DNA from: an uncultured virus (IMG/VR IMGVR_UViG_3300025018_000135)
Lineage: Duplodnaviria; Heunggongvirae; Uroviricota; Caudoviricetes
DNA length: 64,000 bases
Strand: one strand, 5' to 3'
IMG/VR virus record: IMGVR_UViG_3300025018_000135
Shown: in pieces, positions 12,568-61,965 of the stretch
Layout of the letters: each line of letters opens with the position of its first letter
How positions within the stretch are numbered: the stretch's first letter is position 1
Translations under genes and position numbers: made by a program
The notes under the pieces: model-generated
Seen by the model: the letters and a program-made list of their open reading frames with translations, nothing else
The model's database searches: none
What the model was told of the DNA's origin: nothing

Positions 12568-12849
12568 TTATTTATTAGGTTCCATACTAACTTCATACCT
12601 TCCTTTAATTTCACGAACAAGGAAAGCACCTACAGAGGAAGACTTCATCATTTTTACAAAAACTTTTTCAGGCACGTCTGAATAAACGTAGCGGTCTTTC
12701 AAGTTAGACTTGAAAAGAACATACAGCAGTTTGTTGTCTAGGTTATATGCCACTGAGTCCAGATTAGAACTTTCACAGTTTGCGAAAACAGTCCGTTCAT
12801 CGTTATCTAGTTTCATTTTCATATTATTAAAAACAATTCGCTTACTCAT
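12568..12849 (-). CDS. KTSC-domain protein
   Basis: ESSNLDSVAYN...LYVLFK...YVYSDVPEKVF..MMKSSSVGAFLVREIKGRY. Confidence 0.9.
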   Translation of the reverse strand: MSKRIVFNNMKMKLDNDERTVFANCESSNLDSVAYNLDNKLLYVLFKSNLKDRYVYSDVPEKVFVKMMKSSSVGAFLVREIKGRYEVSMEPNK

Positions 12850-13645
12850 AGTCTTTCTCCACGGAAGCTGCTTGTGCGTCTGTTATTGGCATGTCTTTGT
12901 ATTTACTATCAGGGTGGCGTTCTAGGTAAGAACGTTTCTGATTCTTTGACATAGAGTTCCACCATTTTTTATCTTGTTGTGTTATAGTGGTTTGGCTCTT
13001 GTCGTTCTTTTCCATTAGTTGTTCTTTCTTCTTTTCTTCTTGTGCTTTTTTCTGTTTAATTACCGCCTCTTTGTCTGCTTCTGACATAAACTCAAAAGAC
13101 TTACCTTTTTTCAGAGTAGAAAAATAAGGCCCAATATTTGTCGGCCTCCAACGGCCTACACTAAAAGCAGTACCTTTAGCAGGGCCGTGATAAAAAACTA
13201 AAAAGGCTTCTTCTGAATCGTGTTTCTTTAAAAGAACACTGTCTTGTTTGAATTTCTTTGCGGCTCCTTTTAAAAAGGAATCTAGCTGTTTATTACCATC
13301 ATCAGTTTTGTCGCCAATGACAATAAAAGATTCTTCATCTACTACTTTTTCTTTGTCTGTACCTTCATTTTCAATATAACGACCTTTCACTTTAATAAAG
13401 CCATAACCCGCTTTACGAATCATGGCTTTTAATTCTTCATTTCGTTCCCTGTTCTCCTTTAGGGAATACTCACCACGAAACGCAGTGAGTGCCCCTATAT
13501 TTCTTTCTTTTGAGTGTTTGTAAATACGCCCTAAACTAGCGGCGGTTTCTTCTTGACCTGTATATGCTCGCACGACATTGGAATTTTGAAAGTAGAAAGA
13601 CAAACTACCTTCTTCTGATATTAATTTCATTTCTACCACTCCCAA
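12842..13645 (-). CDS. Hypothetical phage protein with C-terminal W..MS..Q..YL..HP.S module
   Basis: Long ORF; the C-terminal motif is shared with ORFs at 54410 and 56010. Confidence 0.6.
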   Translation of the reverse strand: MGVVEMKLISEEGSLSFYFQNSNVVRAYTGQEETAASLGRIYKHSKERNIGALTAFRGEYSLKENRERNEELKAMIRKAGYGFIKVKGRYIENEGTDKEKVVDEESFIVIGDKTDDGNKQLDSFLKGAAKKFKQDSVLLKKHDSEEAFLVFYHGPAKGTAFSVGRWRPTNIGPYFSTLKKGKSFEFMSEADKEAVIKQKKAQEEKKKEQLMEKNDKSQTTITQQDKKWWNSMSKNQKRSYLERHPDSKYKDMPITDAQAASVEKDYE

Positions 13646-16894: not shown

Positions 16895-17302
16895 TCAATC
16901 AAGAAAGGCTTGAATTTCCACCGTTAAAAACTCAGAAGGGTTATCGTAAACAAAGTTCCGAAGTTTATAAAAACTTTCAATCATTTTTTCTTTAGACGTA
17001 GGTTCAGTCAGACCCCAACACAAATCGTTCATCATTTTCAGCATTAAAGCAGCGCCGAAAGTTTTTGCATCCATATTTCCAGAATAGTAATTGTCTGAAC
17101 AGGAAACTTCGTAGTCGTTTTCCGGTGGTACAACAAACACAAAACCATTCTTTTCAAAAACCGTCCACAGACCACCAGAATAATTTTTTGCGTATTCACC
17201 TGCCATAGTAAATAAGCGATTTTCAACAATTCGCATACTAGTGTGGAATTCCGTAAGGAACAGGGCTTTCTTCAAATATTCAGAGTTCATTGCAGTAGAC
17301 AT
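16895..17302 (-). CDS. Antirestriction protein, ArdB/KlcA family
   Basis: ENRLFTMAGEYAKNYSGGLW...NYYSGNMDAKTFG...FYKLRNFVYDNP matches the KlcA/ArdB pattern; GGAG Shine-Dalgarno site before ATG 17302. Confidence 0.8.
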   Translation of the reverse strand: MSTAMNSEYLKKALFLTEFHTSMRIVENRLFTMAGEYAKNYSGGLWTVFEKNGFVFVVPPENDYEVSCSDNYYSGNMDAKTFGAALMLKMMNDLCWGLTEPTSKEKMIESFYKLRNFVYDNPSEFLTVEIQAFLD

Positions 17303-17552
17303 AGTTATCTCCAAGGGTTTATTTGCACTAGCGTAGCAACTCCAAAGAATTGCTACTAACTGCAAACCTACACAAAGTCTTCCAGATTAACTTCCTGAAA
17401 GGTTCCTGCACCTACACAAACAAAAACACGCGGAGGTTGATTCAATTCACACAAAGCATGAACAACCTTTACGGCTTTTGCCATGTTATTAACTTGACTT
17501 GAAAAATTAATACCACCAATGTTAATGCGAATTTCAACCCGTACAGTATCCA

Positions 17553-28604: not shown

Positions 28605-29635
28605 GCTATCACCTTGTCTCTCAGGGTTTCTATAATTTGTAATCCACGCTTAACTTGTTTTTTAGTAGCTCCTTTCTCTCTCATAACTTTATCAAGATTC
28701 TCTACAACAGAAGGCAAGCGCACGTCTTGATCGTCAAGTTCTACGAATTCTTCTTCTATCATCGCCTTTAGTTGTTTTTTACTTTCATATCCTTTTATGT
28801 CAACAACGTTATTATATTTTGCTAAGTCGTCTTCTGAAATATCGTAGCTTGAGTGAATGAAGAGTTTATACAGGTAAAGAGGATTCTTTTGTATTTGTTT
28901 TAAATCATGTTTGCTTTCTACAGGAAGGTTAAACATTTTAAAGGCAGGATCGTTTGGAATACGCTTTAATTTCTTTTCTAGTTTTCCACTTTTTAGTCTG
29001 AACTTACCGTGTGTGAAAGACTTAGGAAGACTTTCGCCAAAGTTGGTTTGGTAAAGAGTTCCTACATAATGTGCAGAACCTGCATCGTGAGGTGTATGAA
29101 GGTGTCCCATGATCCAAGTGTGTTTTTTATTAACATCAACTGCTTTTTTAATTACACGACCATTGTCCCCAGTTGAACCTGAAACTTCAAAGTGTCCAAT
29201 GTTAACAGTGTCTGCATAAGATTTTACGTGAGGATACGGAGAAAAATTAATAGGTACTGGAAAAGATTTTTCTAAGTAAGGTTGGTCTAGGAAGTCTACG
29301 TTTGAAAGCATACCTAGTTCGCGCATAACTGAAAAAGGTTGCAGAGAGTGTACGCCCATTTCACTGAAGTCATGGTTTCCTAATAGAGTAAACGTGTGGA
29401 TATTTTTTACTTTCTTTAGGAAACGCATGAACTCAATTATAGCTTCATAAGACAGTCGTGGATGTTCACAGATATCGCCTAGAAGAACTACAGTTTTAAT
29501 ACCGTTTTTAAGAGCGTAGTTGTAGGGTTTTTTAAGTTCATTTATCTGAAGTTCAATGTGATTCTTAGGAAATCTTTTTCTTAGTTTATCAAAGTGCAAA
29601 TCTCCAACAAAAACGCTTTCAAAAACTTCAGGCAT
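28601..29635 (-). CDS. SbcD/Mre11-like metallophosphoesterase nuclease (T4 gp47-like)
   Basis: GDLH, LGD, GNHD, GH, GHLH motifs. Confidence 0.92.
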   Translation of the reverse strand: MPEVFESVFVGDLHFDKLRKRFPKNHIELQINELKKPYNYALKNGIKTVVLLGDICEHPRLSYEAIIEFMRFLKKVKNIHTFTLLGNHDFSEMGVHSLQPFSVMRELGMLSNVDFLDQPYLEKSFPVPINFSPYPHVKSYADTVNIGHFEVSGSTGDNGRVIKKAVDVNKKHTWIMGHLHTPHDAGSAHYVGTLYQTNFGESLPKSFTHGKFRLKSGKLEKKLKRIPNDPAFKMFNLPVESKHDLKQIQKNPLYLYKLFIHSSYDISEDDLAKYNNVVDIKGYESKKQLKAMIEEEFVELDDQDVRLPSVVENLDKVMREKGATKKQVKRGLQIIETLRDKVIA

Positions 29636-30287
29636 TACTAGACTCCTTAAACTTTATATAATTAGCTTCAACTTCTTTCTTTAATTCAGGGTCGATTATA
29701 TTATCATCTGCGTCAACGTCTACGTAAATAGATTCAAATTCAGACGGAATAAAAGGAAGTTCAATCAACTTTTTACTTTTCCCTGAAGTGTATCCACAGC
29801 CATTAGGGTCACGAAAAATATAGCCGTCTAGATGGTAAATTATACCATTAGACTTAAATAAAGCGCCGCACAAGACATGTTGGTACTGGCCGTCTCCAAT
29901 TTCCATCCATTGTTCGTCTTTGTCTTCGCAGGGAACGACAGAGGTAAACAACATAAAATTAGAAATAAGTTTTTGGATATAGTGAATTGAACTTCCACTA
30001 TGACCTTGCGAACTCAGGACTCTCAAAAGATCAAACGTATTTTGTTGAATCCATTGATTAGGGCCGTCGGTTTCGCCGTCATCGTCAACATCCTTATAAC
30101 CCAGTAACTCAAATTGCTTTTTTGCAAATTTAATGTAGGCAGAGTCTTTCTCTCCATAAAGACGCATAGATAAGTCAAAAAACATTCTAGCCATGCGATG
30201 CTTTACATAATGAACTTTATCTCTAATTTTAAATTTAAGACTAGTAAAAGCTCTGGGTTTAACAACGTATAGTTCGGGGGGAATCAC
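29628..30287 (-). CDS. Hypothetical phage protein
   Basis: 219-aa ORF with a QGHSGSS motif. Confidence 0.55.
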   Translation of the reverse strand: MIPPELYVVKPRAFTSLKFKIRDKVHYVKHRMARMFFDLSMRLYGEKDSAYIKFAKKQFELLGYKDVDDDGETDGPNQWIQQNTFDLLRVLSSQGHSGSSIHYIQKLISNFMLFTSVVPCEDKDEQWMEIGDGQYQHVLCGALFKSNGIIYHLDGYIFRDPNGCGYTSGKSKKLIELPFIPSEFESIYVDVDADDNIIDPELKKEVEANYIKFKESSNA

Positions 30288-32257: not shown

Positions 32258-33565
32258 TTACTTACGTTTTTTCTTAGAGGATTTTTTAGGTGCCTCAGAG
32301 GATTCTTCACTAAGTTCTGATGATTCTTCTTCAGAGGACTCTTCGCTCATTTCAGAAGACTCTTCTTTTTTCTTGCTCTTCGCTTTTCCTTTCTTCTTAG
32401 GAGCTTCAGAAGATTCTTCTTCACTCATTTCCAACTCAGAGGATTCTTCACTCATTTCAGAAGATTCTTCTTTCTTTTTACCTTTGCTTTTAGCCGCAGC
32501 TTTACCTTTCTTCTTAGGAGCTTCAGAAGATTCTTCTTCGCTCATTTCCAATTCAGAAGACTCTTCACTCATTTCTGAGGATTCTTCTTTTTTCTTTTTT
32601 CCCTTAGCGGCGGCTTTACCTTTCCCTTTCTTTTTCGGAGCTTCTGAGGATTCTTCACTCATTTCTGAGGTTTCAGACATTTCCAGTTCAGAAGACTCTT
32701 CTACTTTTTTACCTTTCTTTTTGGATTTCTTGCTTGCTGCCATATCGTCTGACTCCTCATAGTCGGTAGTTTCTTTGCCGTCTTTTGTTTTACGAATAAC
32801 TTTTTTACTCAATTGCTTAAATTCAGATTTCTGAGTTTTTGTATCCTCTTCTTGTGAGGCCCCTACTTTTTCCAAAGCTTCTTCAATATTCCAGTGTAGA
32901 TATTCAACCTCTGTTTCATTTAACGGAGATTTCTCACCTTTCTGAATATCATACGCCTGCGCGGGCTGTGCGTCAGGATCAAACTTAATCATAATGTCCA
33001 TTCCGTAATCATCATCGGAAATAGGCATTGATTTAGTTTTACCACCAACCTTGTGTTTATTAAGGTCGGCCAAGCCTTTCAATTTTTTAGCTACTCCACC
33101 CGGAAGTGACAATACACGGATTGGAGTCCATGCCTTAGATTCATTTCCGTCTTTAAATCCAGATTTCAATTCGGTCTTACTATATTTCTTTTGAAACTTA
33201 GAAGGTTCGTCTTCCTGAATATCCCGAATAATAGCGTTAACGTAATAACGCTGCCGTGCGGTGTAGTCAGGTAGTTCGTCACAATAAACACAGTCTTTTG
33301 TAGAGTCGAAACTATCAGTTTCCGCATCATATCGACCACAGGCTTTAGGTAGCGTTACTTTTTTACCATCTTTAGTCTTAATATCAATCCAGTGTGTTGC
33401 ACTAGCAATTACAGGGCCAACAAGTCGCATCTGAACATACTTGTTGTTCTTCGGCATTGAGAAAACATCAACGAAGTGTTCTAGTTTAACAATTTCTTTT
33501 TTACCACCTTTCGGGTTAGTGTCGTCAAATGTTTTTGACGTTTTATACTTACGTTTTGAAGACAT
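32258..33565 (-). CDS. Putative single-stranded DNA-binding protein (gp32-like) with repetitive acidic/basic tail
   Basis: H..C...C.YC zinc-like site, RYYVNAIIR, D.DYGMDIMIK; located next to recA-like gene; low-complexity C-terminus. Confidence 0.6.
   Translation of the reverse strand: MSSKRKYKTSKTFDDTNPKGGKKEIVKLEHFVDVFSMPKNNKYVQMRLVGPVIASATHWIDIKTKDGKKVTLPKACGRYDAETDSFDSTKDCVYCDELPDYTARQRYYVNAIIRDIQEDEPSKFQKKYSKTELKSGFKDGNESKAWTPIRVLSLPGGVAKKLKGLADLNKHKVGGKTKSMPISDDDYGMDIMIKFDPDAQPAQAYDIQKGEKSPLNETEVEYLHWNIEEALEKVGASQEEDTKTQKSEFKQLSKKVIRKTKDGKETTDYEESDDMAASKKSKKKGKKVEESSELEMSETSEMSEESSEAPKKKGKGKAAAKGKKKKEESSEMSEESSELEMSEEESSEAPKKKGKAAAKSKGKKKEESSEMSEESSELEMSEEESSEAPKKKGKAKSKKKEESSEMSEESSEEESSELSEESSEAPKKSSKKKRK
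32270..32740 (-). repeat. Imperfect coding tandem repeats (KKKEESSEMSEESSELEMSEEESSEAPKKKGKA)
   Basis: About 4 units visible in both DNA and protein. Confidence 0.85.
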
Positions 33566-35433: not shown

Positions 35434-36426
35434 TTAGTCTCCCTTACCTACCATTGATTTTCTACCTGCTATCTTGGTAAGCGTTTTTTCCATTAGTTTC
35501 TGTAGACTCTTTGGAATTTTTTCTCCGATCATGTGCATAGCAAAACACTCACAGAAATGTTCACGACTATTCTTTTGCGCGTAGTCAGAAACCATCATTT
35601 TGAATTTACTTTCTTCAATATCAAGACGTGGCCAGAATTTCTTCAAACTTTTATTCTGCGACCTCAAAGTATCTAGGTCTACAAGATCAAGTGCGTGTAC
35701 CTTTTTAATTTGAGAAAGAACTTTATTAAATTCTTTTTTCTCTTCTTTGTCTGCAATAGTTTTTCTATAGTCAGAAACTGTCTGTTTATATTGACCTTCA
35801 ATAGCGGCCAAGTGCTGAGAATAGTTTTCTTTGGTAATACGATTAATTTCAACGTGCTTGTAATAAGCCTTAGTCCAGTGTGCTCTAATTCTATCGTCCA
35901 GTAAGTGATACCAAACACCGTGACCGTATTCGTGAAAAAAGATGTGTGCATTGTCTACGTTGTGCGCAAGATGAAAAGAAAGAATATCCAGAGAGTCGCC
36001 TTTATAGTGGTGAACATAATGACCGTCTAGGTTTCCTTTTTCTTCTTGTACCTCAATAATCAAAGGTAGAAATTTATGCAGAGACTTCTTTTTAATCTTT
36101 GTGTAAAAGGTTTCAATTTCTGCAAGAATTTCTTTCTTTTCCTTTTTGGATTTATTTCCAAAGAAGTTAACGTCACCAAAAGAAGAAACTGCTTTTGAAT
36201 CGAATATGTCGAAGCTACATCCGTAAATAGAACCTGCTTTCGGGTTGCTTCCAAGGTTTGCTAAAACATCTTCAAGTAAAAAGTCCATTGTTTCTTCAGT
36301 GTAAGGCATTTTGTTGTAGACAGTTCCTCTGGCTTTTTCACCTTTTATTTTATCTACCAGAAGAATAAAGGTTTTCTTGTCAGGTCTTACTGCTACGAAG
36401 TCACCTATTTTAATCGTTAGCGACAT
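35434..36426 (-). CDS. Putative zincin metallopeptidase
   Basis: FFHEYGHG (HExxH) plus downstream SDYAQKNSREHFCECFA. Confidence 0.7.
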   Translation of the reverse strand: MSLTIKIGDFVAVRPDKKTFILLVDKIKGEKARGTVYNKMPYTEETMDFLLEDVLANLGSNPKAGSIYGCSFDIFDSKAVSSFGDVNFFGNKSKKEKKEILAEIETFYTKIKKKSLHKFLPLIIEVQEEKGNLDGHYVHHYKGDSLDILSFHLAHNVDNAHIFFHEYGHGVWYHLLDDRIRAHWTKAYYKHVEINRITKENYSQHLAAIEGQYKQTVSDYRKTIADKEEKKEFNKVLSQIKKVHALDLVDLDTLRSQNKSLKKFWPRLDIEESKFKMMVSDYAQKNSREHFCECFAMHMIGEKIPKSLQKLMEKTLTKIAGRKSMVGKGD

Positions 36427-36800
36427 TGGTTTTCCTCACTATAAATTTTACGTGGATTTCCTGTATTTTATTTTCTATTGAGCTTGATCTAAACTGATAA
36501 AAACAAGACCCTATAAAAAAACTAATTCCGTTTAAGTTTACCTTGTCCCCGATACAATCGTTAATGAATCTATGCACCTGAAAGTCTTTATTTTCTATAA
36601 AGATCGCATTTAGCTCACTGTTCTTATTGTCTAGTGTTTTCATTGATACTTCTGTGCAATACGTGGACAATTTTTCTAAAGGTCTATACACGTCATTTGT
36701 AGAAGACCCTTGTTGTTTTTTATTAAAAAGAATTGAAAAGTCGCATTCTTTTAAAGGTTGTGTATCTTTAATATCTGATATAGAAAATTCAGGTTTCATT

Positions 36801-37052
36801 TTATTTCCCTCTGTTTAGTTTTCTAGCTTTCTTGGCTGCTTTTGCTTTCTGTCTGCGTTTTTTAAAGTTACTTGGTTTTCTGGCTGTGTTTATAGTTTCT
36901 TCAATGCACGGACTGGGGGTGTAGTCTATTAAGTCTTCAGGTTTTGCGGCTACACTATTTTTCAAAATACCAAAAATAGCGTGAGCTAAAGTTGTATCTC
37001 CTTGATCTATATGCCCTACAGTTCCTACATTTGGTTTATCTACAACAGACAT
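36801..37052 (-). CDS. Small protein with EF-Tu-like N-terminal P-loop segment and basic tail
   Basis: KPNVGTVGHIDQGDTTLAHAI versus EF-Tu [23 protein letters not shown]; GAGG Shine-Dalgarno site before ATG 37052. Confidence 0.65.
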   Translation of the reverse strand: MSVVDKPNVGTVGHIDQGDTTLAHAIFGILKNSVAAKPEDLIDYTPSPCIEETINTARKPSNFKKRRQKAKAAKKARKLNRGK

Positions 37053-37635
37053 GGACAGCCTCATTTAAATAGAGATCAGCTAAATTATTTACGAACATTT
37101 TGTTCAAGTGTGCATTATTTTTTCTATAGTCTATGTTCCAAGGGCGTTTCACCAAAAAACATTTCTTTGCTAACTTTCTTTTTAAAACAGCGTCAAAGTG
37201 CTTTGGATTATCTTCTATAAACAAACCAACATCGCCAAATTGTTCTTCTATATAGTCTGCTTTACATTGTCCAAGGTTAACACACTGAACAAAGGTAGAA
37301 GTGAAGCCGTAAACTTTCAGCATACCCTCCGTAATTTCTTTTCCACGGGAATGCCACCCTCTTGCTGTAAGCAATACAGGGTAGGGGTATATATTTTTTA
37401 GAGCATCAATAAATTCCAAACTGTAAGGTTCTGGCCTACTGTTTTCTAAGGCTTGGTGCTCTGTTAATACCTGAAAAAATTCTTCTAAACTAATTTCGTA
37501 CTTAGTGTGAAGATCATAACTGTCCCACTCAGAAAAGTGAATATTTTTTCCTGTGTGTTTATTCAACGCTTCACACATAGGTTCGCGTAAATTGAAAAGA
37601 GTATCATCAACATCAATAATTGCTACGTTACTCAT
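37036..37635 (-). CDS. 5'(3')-deoxyribonucleotidase (NT5C-like HAD)
   Basis: IIDVDDTL, LLTAR, K, FIEDNP, PWN. Confidence 0.85.
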   Translation of the reverse strand: MSNVAIIDVDDTLFNLREPMCEALNKHTGKNIHFSEWDSYDLHTKYEISLEEFFQVLTEHQALENSRPEPYSLEFIDALKNIYPYPVLLTARGWHSRGKEITEGMLKVYGFTSTFVQCVNLGQCKADYIEEQFGDVGLFIEDNPKHFDAVLKRKLAKKCFLVKRPWNIDYRKNNAHLNKMFVNNLADLYLNEAVHVCCR

Positions 37636-38574
37636 ACCTCAATCCCCTTTTCTAGTGCAGTTTCAAAAGACCCAGATACTCTGAAACCTTCTGGAAATAA
37701 TTTAAGCATTTCTCTTTCGTCTGAAAAATTAACCAACTTCATAGAGTCACACATAAATTTCAAGTCCAGTGTTGGTGGAATACTTGATTGAATTGGTTCT
37801 ATAGACGGAAGTAAGACTTTGCACAGCATAACCCAGAGCTTTTATCTATAATATGAAAAATTACCTTTTCAGGTGAAAGAAAATTAGTCATTTGTTCATT
37901 CATTAGCGCAGCAGCGTCTTGATGAAAAACTCTTACTGTATATTCAGGTGTGTATACTTTGTTTGAAATAGTTTGTGTACTTTCAATATCCGTCTCTTTG
38001 TAGTCATAAAAACCAAAGGATAGTTTCTTTTTTAGAATAGCTATAGTTTTCATCTTAGATATTTTTACGCTGTAGGGCGCTGGAGTGTCTTCTCTCAGAA
38101 TTTTTCCCGGAAATATAATGTTCATAACCCACTCCACATGTTTTTAGAAATTTTACCGAAGCCGGAAGATAGTAAAACAAAGTCTTCATTATCGGTGCTG
38201 ATAAGGTTGTCATACCTGCACCCACCTCTAACCCAGATACCAGATACGTCAGAGTCTGTGAGAAAACATCCTACTAGAACTAGCTTCTTTTTATAATCTA
38301 CTAAATAAGTTTTACCTTCTAGGTTTCTGGCCTGATTTTGCATTTCTTCAAAATCATCTAAGTACACTTTAACAACGGCGGGGAAAAACTGCAACCTTCC
38401 GGGGAAAGTTTGTGTAGATACTATGTCTTCAGGTTTTGTATTTCTAAGGCCCAAGCTCAAAGTATTTTTAATCTTTGAGCTTAAACTATATTCATGAACC
38501 TTTACTTGATTAACACGAGGCTCCGGTAGTCTTAGGATTTCGCAGGGTGCTATGAAGTATTTCATATCTTTTCC

Positions 38575-40728: not shown

Positions 40729-41727
40729 TTAGTCTCCAGATTTTTGTTTAAGTATAAATTCTTTTTCCACTTTCTTGAGTTCTGATTTTAGTTTCATTGG
40801 GTTAAAGCACACGTTCATTAAAGGACAAGGTTCATATTTATTGTGATACTCTTCCATGTAAGTCTTTTTGCAGTCACAGGGTTTTTCTTCAATAAGTGTT
40901 TTAATCTCCGATACTTTTCTTTTCTCAATAGCAATACCGAAGTGTTTGTCGCTTAGTTTACACTTGCGTCTAACCTTCTGTCTGTACGTGCCTGAAAACT
41001 TTTTACCTTCGATAGCAAACTTTCTAAAGCCTGCATCACGGGTTAGATAAACAAGCATCCAACCGCCGATTTTAATTTTGTATTGTTTTTCAAGATAGTA
41101 ACAGTAGCTCTCAATCTGCGCCACGTTGTAGGAGTAGGGGAATATTTTCTCTACACCTGACAAATGTTTTTGCATGGCCTCAAAGCCACAAGTCTTGTAA
41201 TCAATTACATAGTATTTACCGTCTTCTTCAAAAAAGAATAAACCATCAAGGTGGCCTGTTGTAAACTTACCAAACTTCACGCCTAATTCGTGGTAAGCCA
41301 TTTCCCCGTCACACTTAGGGCAGGGCTTATAAACTGAAAACTTTCTTTTTCCTTTGCATTTTTTATCTTTACACGTCCAGTTACCAACTAGCTTTTTTCC
41401 TTTACCTAACCATTCCTGAATTAATTCGTGTGTTGTTGTTCCATTAGACGTGTAAAAGTCTCCATTAAAATCCAGTTCCTGCCATTCATCCACACCACCA
41501 AACTTCATTATTTTGAACCAGTGCTGCAAGCCACAATAAGGAAAAGAAGATGGGTGCAATTCGTAGGCGCGTTTAGGAGAGTGCCTTCTCTTTTTACCTT
41601 TAGTATTTCTGTCAATATAGTATTTAAATTCTGCGATGACGTGAGCCATAGGATCATCATCACCAACAGTGTCTAATTCAAAAAATTTGGTTTGTTTGTG
41701 TTGTTTTCCGTATCTAGAAAAACTCAT
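40729..41727 (-). CDS. Cas4-like PD-(D/E)xK exonuclease
   Basis: HPSSFPYC, GTTTHE, GHLDG, IDYKT, QIESY, C-terminal Cys cluster; internal zinc ribbon. Confidence 0.8.
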   Translation of the reverse strand: MSFSRYGKQHKQTKFFELDTVGDDDPMAHVIAEFKYYIDRNTKGKKRRHSPKRAYELHPSSFPYCGLQHWFKIMKFGGVDEWQELDFNGDFYTSNGTTTHELIQEWLGKGKKLVGNWTCKDKKCKGKRKFSVYKPCPKCDGEMAYHELGVKFGKFTTGHLDGLFFFEEDGKYYVIDYKTCGFEAMQKHLSGVEKIFPYSYNVAQIESYCYYLEKQYKIKIGGWMLVYLTRDAGFRKFAIEGKKFSGTYRQKVRRKCKLSDKHFGIAIEKRKVSEIKTLIEEKPCDCKKTYMEEYHNKYEPCPLMNVCFNPMKLKSELKKVEKEFILKQKSGD

Positions 41728-46379: not shown

Positions 46380-47267
46380 ATGAAAGGCAACGTTACTTTA
46401 CTGAAAGCGTCTGACATTTCATTACCAAAAACTAATCTTGAAGCTATGCACCAATTAAGGAAATTGTCATTTGAGTTTCACGTAGAGGCTCACGAACTCG
46501 CGGACACTCTTAGAAGGTTCCGTGAAGACTCTACTGTTCTTTCTGGTGTATTTAATATTCTCAATGACGCAATTATTAGAGTTAGTGGTGATGGTAGTAT
46601 TCTTTATATGAACCCCACCGCAGAAAAATTGTTCGGTGCTGATAGAGTTATGTGTAAAGGTAGGAGTATTTCATTTCTTGCCGGTCTGTCATTAAAAGAC
46701 TTACTGGAAGAGTTGAATACCAACGGAAAGAATCAATTGAAAATGTTCAACCTTAGCGGTAGATATTTCGACGCTTCTCTGTCGGTCACTGAAGTAGAAC
46801 ACGGTAAAGATAAAATAGAATACGTTTTCGTAATTCGTGATATGAGTGACATACTGAAAATGAAGTCTGCATTAATTGATTCTGATACTAAGTTTGAAGT
46901 ACTGTCTAAAGCTTTAGATGAAGCTACTGACGTTATTATTATTTCAGACTCAAATAATAAAATTATTTTTTGCAATAAAGCTTTTACCGAGCATACAGGG
47001 TATTCGTACAAAGAAGCTATTGGTAAAAATCCGGGATTTTATAAGTCTGGTAAAACACATGACGAAGTTTATGAAGACATGTGGCAAACTGTGCGTTCTG
47101 GAAAAGTGTGGCACGGTATGTTTATTAATACTGCGTTCGATGGAAGGTTGTTAACAGACGATACTACAATTACTCCAGTCTTACAGACAGCTTCGTCTAT
47201 GCCTACGTTCTATATCGCAGTTAAAAAAGTTATACAAAAAGGGGATTTAAATGAAAGATTTAATTGA
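46380..47267 (+). CDS. Stand-alone tandem PAS-domain protein
   Basis: PAS1: DAIIRVSGDGSILYMNPTAEKLFG...VIRD. PAS2: IIISDSNNKIIFCNKAFTEHTGYSYKEAIGKNP...MWQTVRSGKVWHG.FIN. No output domain. Confidence 0.9.
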   Translation: MKGNVTLLKASDISLPKTNLEAMHQLRKLSFEFHVEAHELADTLRRFREDSTVLSGVFNILNDAIIRVSGDGSILYMNPTAEKLFGADRVMCKGRSISFLAGLSLKDLLEELNTNGKNQLKMFNLSGRYFDASLSVTEVEHGKDKIEYVFVIRDMSDILKMKSALIDSDTKFEVLSKALDEATDVIIISDSNNKIIFCNKAFTEHTGYSYKEAIGKNPGFYKSGKTHDEVYEDMWQTVRSGKVWHGMFINTAFDGRLLTDDTTITPVLQTASSMPTFYIAVKKVIQKGDLNERFN

Positions 47268-61410: not shown

Positions 61411-61965
61411 TTATTCCAAACCTTCTCTGCTAGACAAAGGTGTGAAAATTTTATCATCAGTTGATTGAATCTCTTCTCCGTACAATCTGATAATTTTATT
61501 TTTGTAATTCATCTCAAAATTATCAATTACCTGATTAACCCACCATCTGTATTTGGGGCGCTTCCAAGGAGGCAGGTTATAAACTAAAGTAATGTGTGGA
61601 ACGTAGTTTTCAGACAAAGGCATTGCGTTATATTGTTTAATTATTTCTTGTCTTCTGTTATGTAATGTAGGGGCATCAAGAGTAATTACTAAAGAATTAA
61701 TTCCGTAGTAATCATCATACCAGATAGAGGCCCCTGTTATTACAGTGTTGTGCATTTTGTTTTCAGGAACGAAGTTTTCGATTGATGTCTTTGAATATAG
61801 CAGGGTTACCCTGAAGTCTTCTGCCTTAACAGGATTGTTAAAAGGGCACTGACTTACTATATTTGCCAAAGAGACTCTATCTGATTCTACAAGCTTCAAA
61901 GAAACTCGATTATTTTTGTGAATCATATTATCACCTGTTGAAAGCAAAACTCCAATCTCTAACAT
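61411..61965 (-). CDS. 2H phosphoesterase, anti-CBASS Acb1 (T4 57B)-like, first HxT motif altered
   Basis: NPVKAEDFRVTLLYSK...LVITLDAPTLHNRRQEI...YVPHITLVY. Confidence 0.7.
   Translation of the reverse strand: MLEIGVLLSTGDNMIHKNNRVSLKLVESDRVSLANIVSQCPFNNPVKAEDFRVTLLYSKTSIENFVPENKMHNTVITGASIWYDDYYGINSLVITLDAPTLHNRRQEIIKQYNAMPLSENYVPHITLVYNLPPWKRPKYRWWVNQVIDNFEMNYKNKIIRLYGEEIQSTDDKIFTPLSSREGLE

Follow-up and report, generated by a model that had tools for sequence, protein, structure and literature searches.

Why would a phage keep a piece of the N-terminus of elongation factor Tu (EF-Tu) as a small gene of its own? The question is raised by an open reading frame (ORF) of 83 codons, the mini ORF, on the minus strand of a 64,000-nucleotide stretch of DNA from an uncultured member of the Caudoviricetes (IMG/VR IMGVR_UViG_3300025018_000135); this whole stretch is the DNA analysed here and is referred to below as the window. 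A sequence-only reading of the locus had described a protein that mimics the EF-Tu N-terminus with a disabled P-loop, and had suggested a decoy or a translation modulator. We find that the mini ORF is a genuine accessory gene, carried by a groundwater jumbo phage of the PaBG-like kind, and that its product, the window protein, is on profile scores a full-length member of a recurrent, scattered and uncharacterised family of phage proteins. As to its role we favour, at a probability of about 0.4, the reading that the window protein would be a mimic competing for a factor that recognises EF-Tu, either as a competitor or as a pseudo-substrate. The features on which the argument rests are these.

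36801..37052, minus strand: mini-EF-Tu ORF, 83 codons plus stop (ATG at 37052, stop at 36801-36803)
36954..37037, minus strand: residues 6-33, copying strand beta1, the P-loop and helix A of EF-Tu (EF-Tu 11-38; HMMER alignments, shuffles)
36996..36998, minus strand: codon 19, GAT, encoding Asp where EF-Tu has the Walker A lysine (Lys24)
36876..36953, minus strand: spacer colinear with EF-Tu switch I, residues 34-59 (ID..P, TINTA; HMMER alignment up to residues 58-59)
36804..36881, minus strand: Lys/Arg-rich C-terminal tail, residues 58-83, with 13 Lys/Arg and no Asp or Glu in the last 25 residues
37059..37062, minus strand: Shine-Dalgarno-like GAGG, 6 nt 5' of the ATG at 37052 and overlapping an alternative in-frame ATG (37062-37064)

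Judged against shuffled sequences, the EF-Tu likeness of residues 7-33 is real, as had been proposed. These residues align with EF-Tu 12-38, such that N8 V9 G10 T11 V12 G13 H14 I15 D16 Q17 G18 D19 T20 T21 L22 correspond to N13 through L27, and the local BLOSUM62 score of 83 compares with 24 +/- 4.5 for shuffles and was reached by none of 5000. EF-Tu provides the best of the listed matches in a phmmer search of the PDB (best E 4.3e-5, query 7-58 to EF-Tu 12-66), and the top match in NCBIfam is the EF-Tu equivalog TIGR00485 (E 3.8e-6), with aIF2-gamma and SelB ranking behind. The scores lie far below the cut-offs of both models concerned (25.9 bits against 522.4 for TIGR00485; 16.6 bits against 26.5, E 0.006, for Pfam GTP_EFTU, PF00009). 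The alignments end at EF-Tu residue 66-67, in the next ORF neither a GTPase nor an EF-Tu domain is matched, and the window protein, which stops at residue 83, has neither the G3 D..G, G4 NK.D and G5 motifs nor the beta-barrel domains II and III. Its P-loop reads GHIDQGDT and departs from the G1 Walker A motif G....GK[ST]; D16 is aligned with Asp21 and D19 with Lys24, which bears out the lysine-to-aspartate change seen earlier. On these alignments the mini ORF derives from the 5' part of a bacterial tuf gene, and by its motifs its product is not a GTPase.

By direct search the protein is nearly an orphan. In an exhaustive search of 1.84 billion protein representatives, nothing passed E 0.001 besides the protein itself and four artefacts made of EF-Tu repeats, a word-based protein search gave nothing besides the mini ORF itself, and close relatives of the mini ORF or of its neighbours were found neither in IMG/VR (one weak match) nor in the JGI metagenomes.

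Beyond helix A, HMMER pairs the spacer with switch I (ID..P; TINTA against TINTS/TINTA), placing K37 at R44, E51 at R58 and E52 at I60, with G59 deleted and T53 aligned to the G2 threonine T61. The switch-I stretch alone scores at chance (531 of 5000 shuffles reach its score). The earlier description of a linker in place of the rest of the G domain is corrected to this extent: residues 34-58 can be aligned to switch I, but not with a score above chance on their own. The absence of the Lit site RGITI, noticed at the same time, is upheld, with R58, G59 and I60 not kept. The basic tail was likewise seen correctly. Against a hidden Markov model (HMM) of temperate-phage tails it scores a weak 5.0 bits, which 23 of 2000 shuffles reached.

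The class of phage mini-EF-Tu proteins is defined in this analysis and overlaps phrog_27465 and phrog_12626. Its plan comprises an EF-Tu N-terminal segment (NVGT(I/V)G, P-loop, helix A) followed by a variable spacer and then a Lys/Arg-rich C-terminal helix. The window protein has the first module, NVGT(I/V)GH with a TTL..A helix, at residues 8-26 (helix 17-33 in the AlphaFold2, AF2, model), and the basic helix in its tail (62-81 in the same model). It scores 44.2 bits over residues 8-77 with a family HMM built from 16 proteins from which the window sequence had been left out. When the motif was kept and residues 23-83 were shuffled the mean score was 26.3 bits and none of 2000 shuffles reached 44.2, so that the helix, spacer and tail fit the family too, beyond the EF-Tu motif. 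Against the PHROGs themselves the window protein matches phrog_27465 weakly (E 3.3e-4 over the 20 residues 8-27) and phrog_12626 not at all.

Among the relatives are PaBG gp192, whose last 83 residues align end to end with the window protein at 32% identity (E 3e-7), and a 190-residue protein at an IMG/VR locus (L063; E 3e-7); the peptide PNVGTVGHID is common to all three. Both resemble the window protein in the length of the spacer and in having a Lys/Arg tail. However, gp192 (267 residues, annotated as a hypothetical protein) has a 185-residue N-terminal domain, keeps the lysine (GKA) and lies in another place in its genome, and the L063 protein has GHIDHSIP.

Further members are scattered widely. 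A tblastn search of cultured phages found ORFs of 109 residues in Erwinia jumbo phages (GHVDHGRT or GHVDHSRS), an ORF of 92 residues with a basic tail in Pseudomonas phage Dolphis and ORFs of 59 residues in Aggregatibacter phages S1249 and Aaphi23. The Vibrio phages 150E35-1, henriette, Va2 and 1.244.A have ORFs of 59-239 residues with a basic tail in which the switch-I motif ERGIT(I/V) is kept. A motif scan of IMG/VR gave 60 loci, comprising 35 full-length EF-Tu genes, 10 cut or frameshifted ones and 15 short or re-contextualised forms, PaBG itself being one of the 15. In a profile search of 5.8 billion proteins about 25 metagenome proteins outscored the background set by fragments of EF-Tu, and they have one of two kinds of tail, RK.ARKAR(L/M)..LQRRAF.GE or GKG(E/Q)(K/R)R..K..RW. 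The phrog_12626 form occurs in 48 SPN3US-like phage records (50 matching, less two Listeria-labelled contigs). At least seven Lys/Arg among the last 25 residues are present in 35 of 49 members. A retained G3 motif was considered as a family trait and dropped, as a strict match (hhhD..G after helix A) occurs in just 2/49, and in the sequences at hand the later G motifs and domains II and III are found in no member. The C-terminal part of the Va2 protein as query matched only the Va2 protein, a profile of Vibrio-type tails gave nothing in the PDB at E up to 10, and of the 44 stretches matched in a scan of bacterial genomes with a two-sequence tail alignment none was confirmed.

Some loci show the gene in altered form. 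In Vibrio phage henriette (L011, 1489-2153) it is split into a 59-residue ORF with motif and tail and a 160-residue ORF with ERERGIVVV... and the same GKGDRIRRR tail, which represents either a tail duplication or a broken gene. At L071 (2465-3121), compared with L025 (2465-2905), the mini gene has lost its stop behind ...RRAFTG and runs into a hydrophobic ORF resembling a membrane protein. In a 38.9 kb IMG/VR contig (L035, 2498-4174) a GHVDNGKT motif stands in frame as a 45-residue extension of the large terminase subunit, right after the small terminase gene. Contigs of 370-620 kb labelled viral (L023, L024, L041, L067 and others) carry full-length EF-Tu genes, which are either genes of huge phages or host DNA and could be a source of truncated forms.

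Homologues do conserve the EF-Tu-like segment, and they conserve it as protein. Across 27 loci the peptide NVGT(I/V)G never changes, while its Val, Gly and Thr are each encoded by all four of their codons; as these loci were found via the motif, the invariance of the peptide arises partly by construction, but the freedom of the third positions does not. A fixed peptide with free third positions implies selection on the protein and not on the DNA, and mimicry of tuf at the nucleotide level is thereby ruled out. Between related pairs dN/dS was 0.05, 0.11, 0.30, 0.35 and 0.74 (four of the five within 0.05-0.35), with two further pairs saturated.

The Walker lysine follows a different course. Among the 49 distinct members the P-loop has GK[S/T] in 28 and lysine only (GKx) in five, and in 16 there is no lysine. 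In the SPN3US-like branch the lysine is absent from 8/8 sequences read, with H(V/I)NVGTIG invariant there. Because the lysine is lost in many members and the rest of the G domain is gone, GTP binding is not the point. The P-loop of the window protein is thus disabled, as first described, but this does not define the family, and the conservation of the K-to-D change that one might have looked for among homologues is not seen; on the members compared it is a lineage state, one of many decays of a dispensable residue and not a family hallmark.

Predicted structures are of low confidence. The AF2 model of the window protein, made with the family alignment, has a predicted local distance difference test (pLDDT) score of 62.8 and a predicted template modelling (pTM) score of 0.26, with helices at 17-33 and 62-81, the latter with block pLDDT of 71-80; another member, P0021, gave 72.6 and 0.34. 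In both models the NVGTIG segment is a low-confidence coil and no strands are formed, whereas helix A and the tail helix come out best. For the mini ORF, the model held by the Atlas has pLDDT 0.35, and Atlas leads are all below 0.9. The unstructured motif in the AF2 models could fit a segment that becomes ordered only on a partner or in an oligomer.

The mini ORF is packed tightly between its neighbours.

37036..37635, minus strand: upstream ORF of 199 residues, HAD/PNK-phosphatase-like (phrog_420 E 5e-14, phrog_415 E 1e-4, Pfam HAD_2 E 0.02)
36410..36799, minus strand: next ORF, 129 residues, starting 1 nt past the mini ORF stop

The last 17 nt of the upstream ORF overlap the mini ORF, the GAGGG of the 129-residue ORF is located within the 3' end of the mini ORF, and possibly the two are co-translated. 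Thus both the abutment on the neighbours and the Shine-Dalgarno site of its own, already noted from the sequence, are upheld; the alternative ATG at 37064 is without a comparable site. The 129-residue ORF has no relatives and no family match in Pfam, PHROGs, NCBIfam or PADLOC, and Rfam gave nothing in 36300-37700 at E up to 1. The composition of the mini ORF (GC 0.373, third-position GC, GC3, 0.25) resembles that of the neighbouring genes, so that it is not a recent import; recent capture from a host is excluded by this phage-like composition. The stretch is present in 16 listed runs, of which 15 are aquifer metagenomes of one year and one is its likely source. Four further aquifer runs, which may stem from one campaign, have contigs with identical DNA (0 differences), one of them covering 36439-37128.

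The window is AT-rich phage DNA (36.6% GC) in which nearly all genes from 1 to 44 kb lie on the minus strand, and in SSB, sigma factor and HExxH peptidase it shows 25-41% identity to the jumbo phages PaBG, Lu11, phiRSL1, BcepSauron, Vibrio GR7B and Xanthomonas PhiXhv. The mini ORF is situated in a block that holds SSB, primase, clamp loader and RecA, and within a variable region bounded by two conserved genes.

35434..36426, minus strand: HExxH metallopeptidase, phrog_17197 E 5e-50, conserved in PaBG-like jumbo phages; one edge of the variable region
40729..41727, minus strand: Cas4-like PD-(D/E)XK nuclease, BLASTP to the PhiXhv-16 homologue 34% identity, E 2e-41; the other edge
29628-30287, minus strand: homologue of Tad3, a type I Thoeris inhibitor (Pfam PF25185, E 2e-22), in the replication/recombination block and adjoining a RecA-like gene
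61411-61965, minus strand: Acb1 (anti-CBASS) homologue, E 1.6e-14
16895-17365, minus strand: ArdA-type antirestriction protein, E 2.4e-11
12842-13645, minus strand: SAM lyase homologue, E 2.6e-16

Between nuclease and peptidase there is one gene in PhiXhv-16 and there are about ten ORFs in the window, the mini ORF among them. A more specific synteny, an insertion between kinase and peptidase, was discarded since the HAD-like ORF of the window is not homologous to the PhiXhv-16 kinase (E 0.91), and tRNA-linked capture of tufB was also set aside, the only tRNA of the window being 32 kb distant. The four counter-defence homologues indicate that this phage invests in counter-defence. The mini ORF itself matches nothing in PADLOC and no anti-defence family in Pfam, the sole anti-defence library used.

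Homologues of the HExxH peptidase are carried by 51 phage records. The window copy, two genes from the mini ORF, carries the motif HEYGH and resembles, below threshold, the anthrax lethal factor domain family (E 0.022). Elsewhere in the window, an ORF at 46380-47267 on the plus strand has two PAS domains (E 1e-23), a sensor domain unusual in phage, and the SSB homologue (32258-33565, minus strand) ends in about 170 residues in which acidic/serine blocks (SSEMSEESSE...) alternate with lysine blocks (KKKGK...).

In other phages the surroundings differ. The mini gene of temperate contigs lies in a nin-like region past the replication genes, and in 6/11 mini-bearing contigs scanned it comes after replication or helicase genes (O-like, DnaC-like, DnaB-like or related). 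At the SPN3US-like loci of SPN3US-like and Erwinia jumbo phages (L075-L080, L001, L003) it always follows a coding sequence (CDS) for about 160 residues, annotated as a GNAT acetyltransferase in five of eight and present as an unannotated CDS of 480-492 nt in the remaining three. In SPN3US and Asesino, the two loci with flanks reaching that far, there is a macro-domain gene four genes further downstream, and an ADP-ribose link between this gene and EF-Tu Asp21 is conceivable. No neighbour gene is common to all branches of the family.

How might such a protein act? We propose that it would work by mimicry of EF-Tu at the level of the protein. The EF-Tu beta1/P-loop peptide, which is not packed into the fold in either monomer model, would be displayed and would compete with EF-Tu, be it the full protein or a nascent or cleaved form, for a factor recognising that region, most likely a host weapon or sensor aimed at the N-terminal 60 residues of EF-Tu. 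The basic helix might strengthen binding by contacting nucleic acid or an acidic surface, and the K-to-D change would merely remove a phosphate-binding residue that is not needed for this function. The decoy or translation modulator first suggested would in this light still count among the best readings. The Lit site in EF-Tu we take to be G59-I60. Lit is cited as an EF-Tu protease in two sources (bioRxiv 10.1101/2024.10.24.620036; PMC13581612); according to the former a type IV Thoeris caspase cuts EF-Tu after R45 and R59, and TreTu is reported to ADP-ribosylate D21 (PMC9825190). We favour a competitor or pseudo-substrate because EF-Tu residues 1-60 hold the sites of all three, and we take the variable stretch, the counter-defence homologues and the nin-like region to be a setting typical of host-interaction genes. 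The Asp21 targeted by TreTu, in its GH.D context, is present in the window protein as D16.

Several points weigh against this reading. Strand beta1, the best-conserved part of the family, is buried in folded EF-Tu and would be an odd epitope for a reader of the native protein. The positions expected of a protease decoy (R44/45, R58/59, G59-I60) are altered in the manner given above, and with R58, G59 and I60 absent and Lys for R44 the window protein cannot be a substrate for Lit or the caspase; the specific link to Lit or Doc that had been suggested is not supported, the Doc target lying outside the copied part. The SPN3US branch lacks a basic tail, and SPN3US (GRVAFDDT) also lacks H19 and D21, so that one mechanism may not fit all branches. 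The low AF2 confidence of the motif may equally be a failure of the model, and the family counts are biased, members having been found via the motif and the 49-member set including close variants. For the window ORF itself, no RNA run is among the listed runs carrying the stretch, and the identical contigs of the four other runs offer no variants from which to gauge its selection. Finally, EF-Tu makes up 6-10% of the proteome (PMC13581612), and at this abundance a simple competing substrate would be swamped, leaving only a tight pseudo-substrate or inhibitor as workable.

The main rival to mimicry, which we regard as doubtful, is binding to the ribosome or RNA: the EF-Tu P-loop face, which touches the sarcin-ricin loop in EF-Tu, and the arginine-rich helix would together dock on the factor-binding site of rRNA or on tRNA and tune or block translation factors. 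The Lys/Arg-rich tail of 35/49 members, modelled as a helix, would suit such a role, as would the H19 and D21 that the window protein retains, and if the target were universal the presence of the family in phages of many hosts would be accounted for. D21 of ribosome-bound EF-Tu lies in a 23S pocket of G2655, C2658 and G2659 (PMC9825190). However, the SPN3US branch has neither H19 and D21 nor the tail, an isolated beta1-loop-helix would be unlikely to hold the geometry it has in EF-Tu, an aspartate in place of lysine is unfavourable for contact with an RNA backbone, and no precedent was found in the full-text literature. The motif that is unstructured in the monomer models would also be accommodated if the EF-Tu strand joined the beta-sheet of another phage protein, with the mini protein as its subunit or regulator. 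The candidate partners would be the 129-residue ORF in the window, spaced by 1 nt and with its Shine-Dalgarno site inside the mini ORF, and the GNAT protein encoded just upstream in SPN3US-like phages (acetyltransferase-annotated in 5/8, with the unannotated 480-492 nt CDS in 3/8). We consider this unlikely, as no partner gene is common across the family and the 129-residue ORF is without relatives or family.

An equally improbable alternative is a minimal beta-loop-alpha protein that binds phosphate or nucleic acid in phage DNA replication, the EF-Tu likeness being only a mark of origin. It draws on the position of the gene, which follows replication or helicase genes in the 6/11 temperate contigs and lies in the block with SSB, primase, clamp loader and RecA in the window, on the GK[S/T] kept by 28/49 members, and on the many family tails that end in Q(L/R)(R/K)AF, presumably resembling a sliding-clamp-binding motif. 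Yet the lysine is absent from 16/49 members, the window protein included, and the window tail has no Q..AF; what is kept is the EF-Tu-specific N13, T16 and H19 instead of a generic P-loop pattern, and the region past the replication genes is an ordinary place for lambdoid accessory genes. Very unlikely, in our judgement, is that the ORF is untranslated or that it is what remains, without function, of a captured tuf 5' end. That the protein is an orphan by sequence, with only itself and the four artefacts passing E 0.001, that family matches of the ORF alone are sub-threshold, and that the listed runs with the stretch include no RNA run, would all agree with a remnant. Opposed to this are the phage-like composition (GC3 0.25), the Shine-Dalgarno site with tight coupling to the neighbours, the full-length fit to the family model, the purifying selection on relatives and the recurrence of the same architecture in unrelated phages.

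The idea of mimicry can tentatively be carried further. It is possible that many phage lineages have a dedicated protein for displaying the EF-Tu N-terminus. Its near-invariant NVGTIG/P-loop peptide, borne on a basic helix and either unfolded or able to add a strand, would imitate EF-Tu and so neutralise or hijack a conserved host factor by which that region is read. An immune effector or guard directed at EF-Tu is one candidate for such a factor, the factor-binding site of the ribosome another. If true, phages would have made a fragment of the most abundant protein of the cell into a takeover or anti-defence protein of a new class. Several bacterial weapons hit EF-Tu, and all of the sites cited here fall in its first 60 residues (Asp21 for TreTu, Arg45 and Arg59 for the type IV Thoeris caspase, and Gly59-Ile60 for Lit). 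It is exactly this region that the family keeps under protein-level selection, while dropping GTP binding and adding a basic helix. Phages of several host groups carry the family, jumbo and mid-sized ones as well as temperate ones, and with similar genes in many unrelated phages it seems that phages reuse this piece of EF-Tu. The family gives concrete access to the ways in which phages cope with EF-Tu or exploit it, and with homologues in the tractable phages Dolphis, SPN3US, PaBG and S1249 the question is directly testable.

The family is already in the databases, as PHROGs of unknown function and under the GenBank labels 'putative elongation factor Tu' or 'putative GTPase', and members were probably recorded as false 'EF-Tu virulence factor' hits in prophages (PMC12013270). 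In the full-text literature, supplementary files aside, no paper describing or testing it was found. The window protein is a new, minimal, lysine-less variant, and the recognition of the family as a whole goes beyond the sequence-only reading.

Among translational GTPases EF-Tu is the best match of the window protein and the natural standard of comparison (TIGR00485, PF00009, residues about 11-66). The two share beta1, the GH.D.G that opens the P-loop and helix A (TTL..AI..L), and a putative switch-I remnant (TINTA) is colinear in the alignment, but EF-Tu has about 394 residues against 83, and the window protein has Asp for the Walker lysine and an added Lys/Arg-rich tail. The phage proteins of phrog_27465 (S1249/Aaphi23 type, 59 residues) and phrog_12626/28329 (SPN3US, Erwinia jumbo phages) share the EF-Tu N-terminal motif with it; they differ in that the S1249 type keeps GKT and the SPN3US type has a 30-residue N-terminal extension and no basic tail. 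The mini proteins of temperate phages (72-147 residues; L014, L022, L033, L025, L028, P0015-P0060) have the same two-module plan, although most of them keep GHIDHGKT and sit past the replication genes of contigs of 20-90 kb, and the window tail is shorter than theirs and without the Q..AF ending. The nearest case in print is Caulobacter phage Colossus gp247 (PMC3556154), a truncated EF-Ts, in which a large phage likewise has a one-third-length piece of a host elongation factor that was proposed to be a translation modulator. It concerns another factor and retains a residue of presumed function, while from the window protein the catalytic lysine is gone, and the role of gp247 is likewise a proposal.

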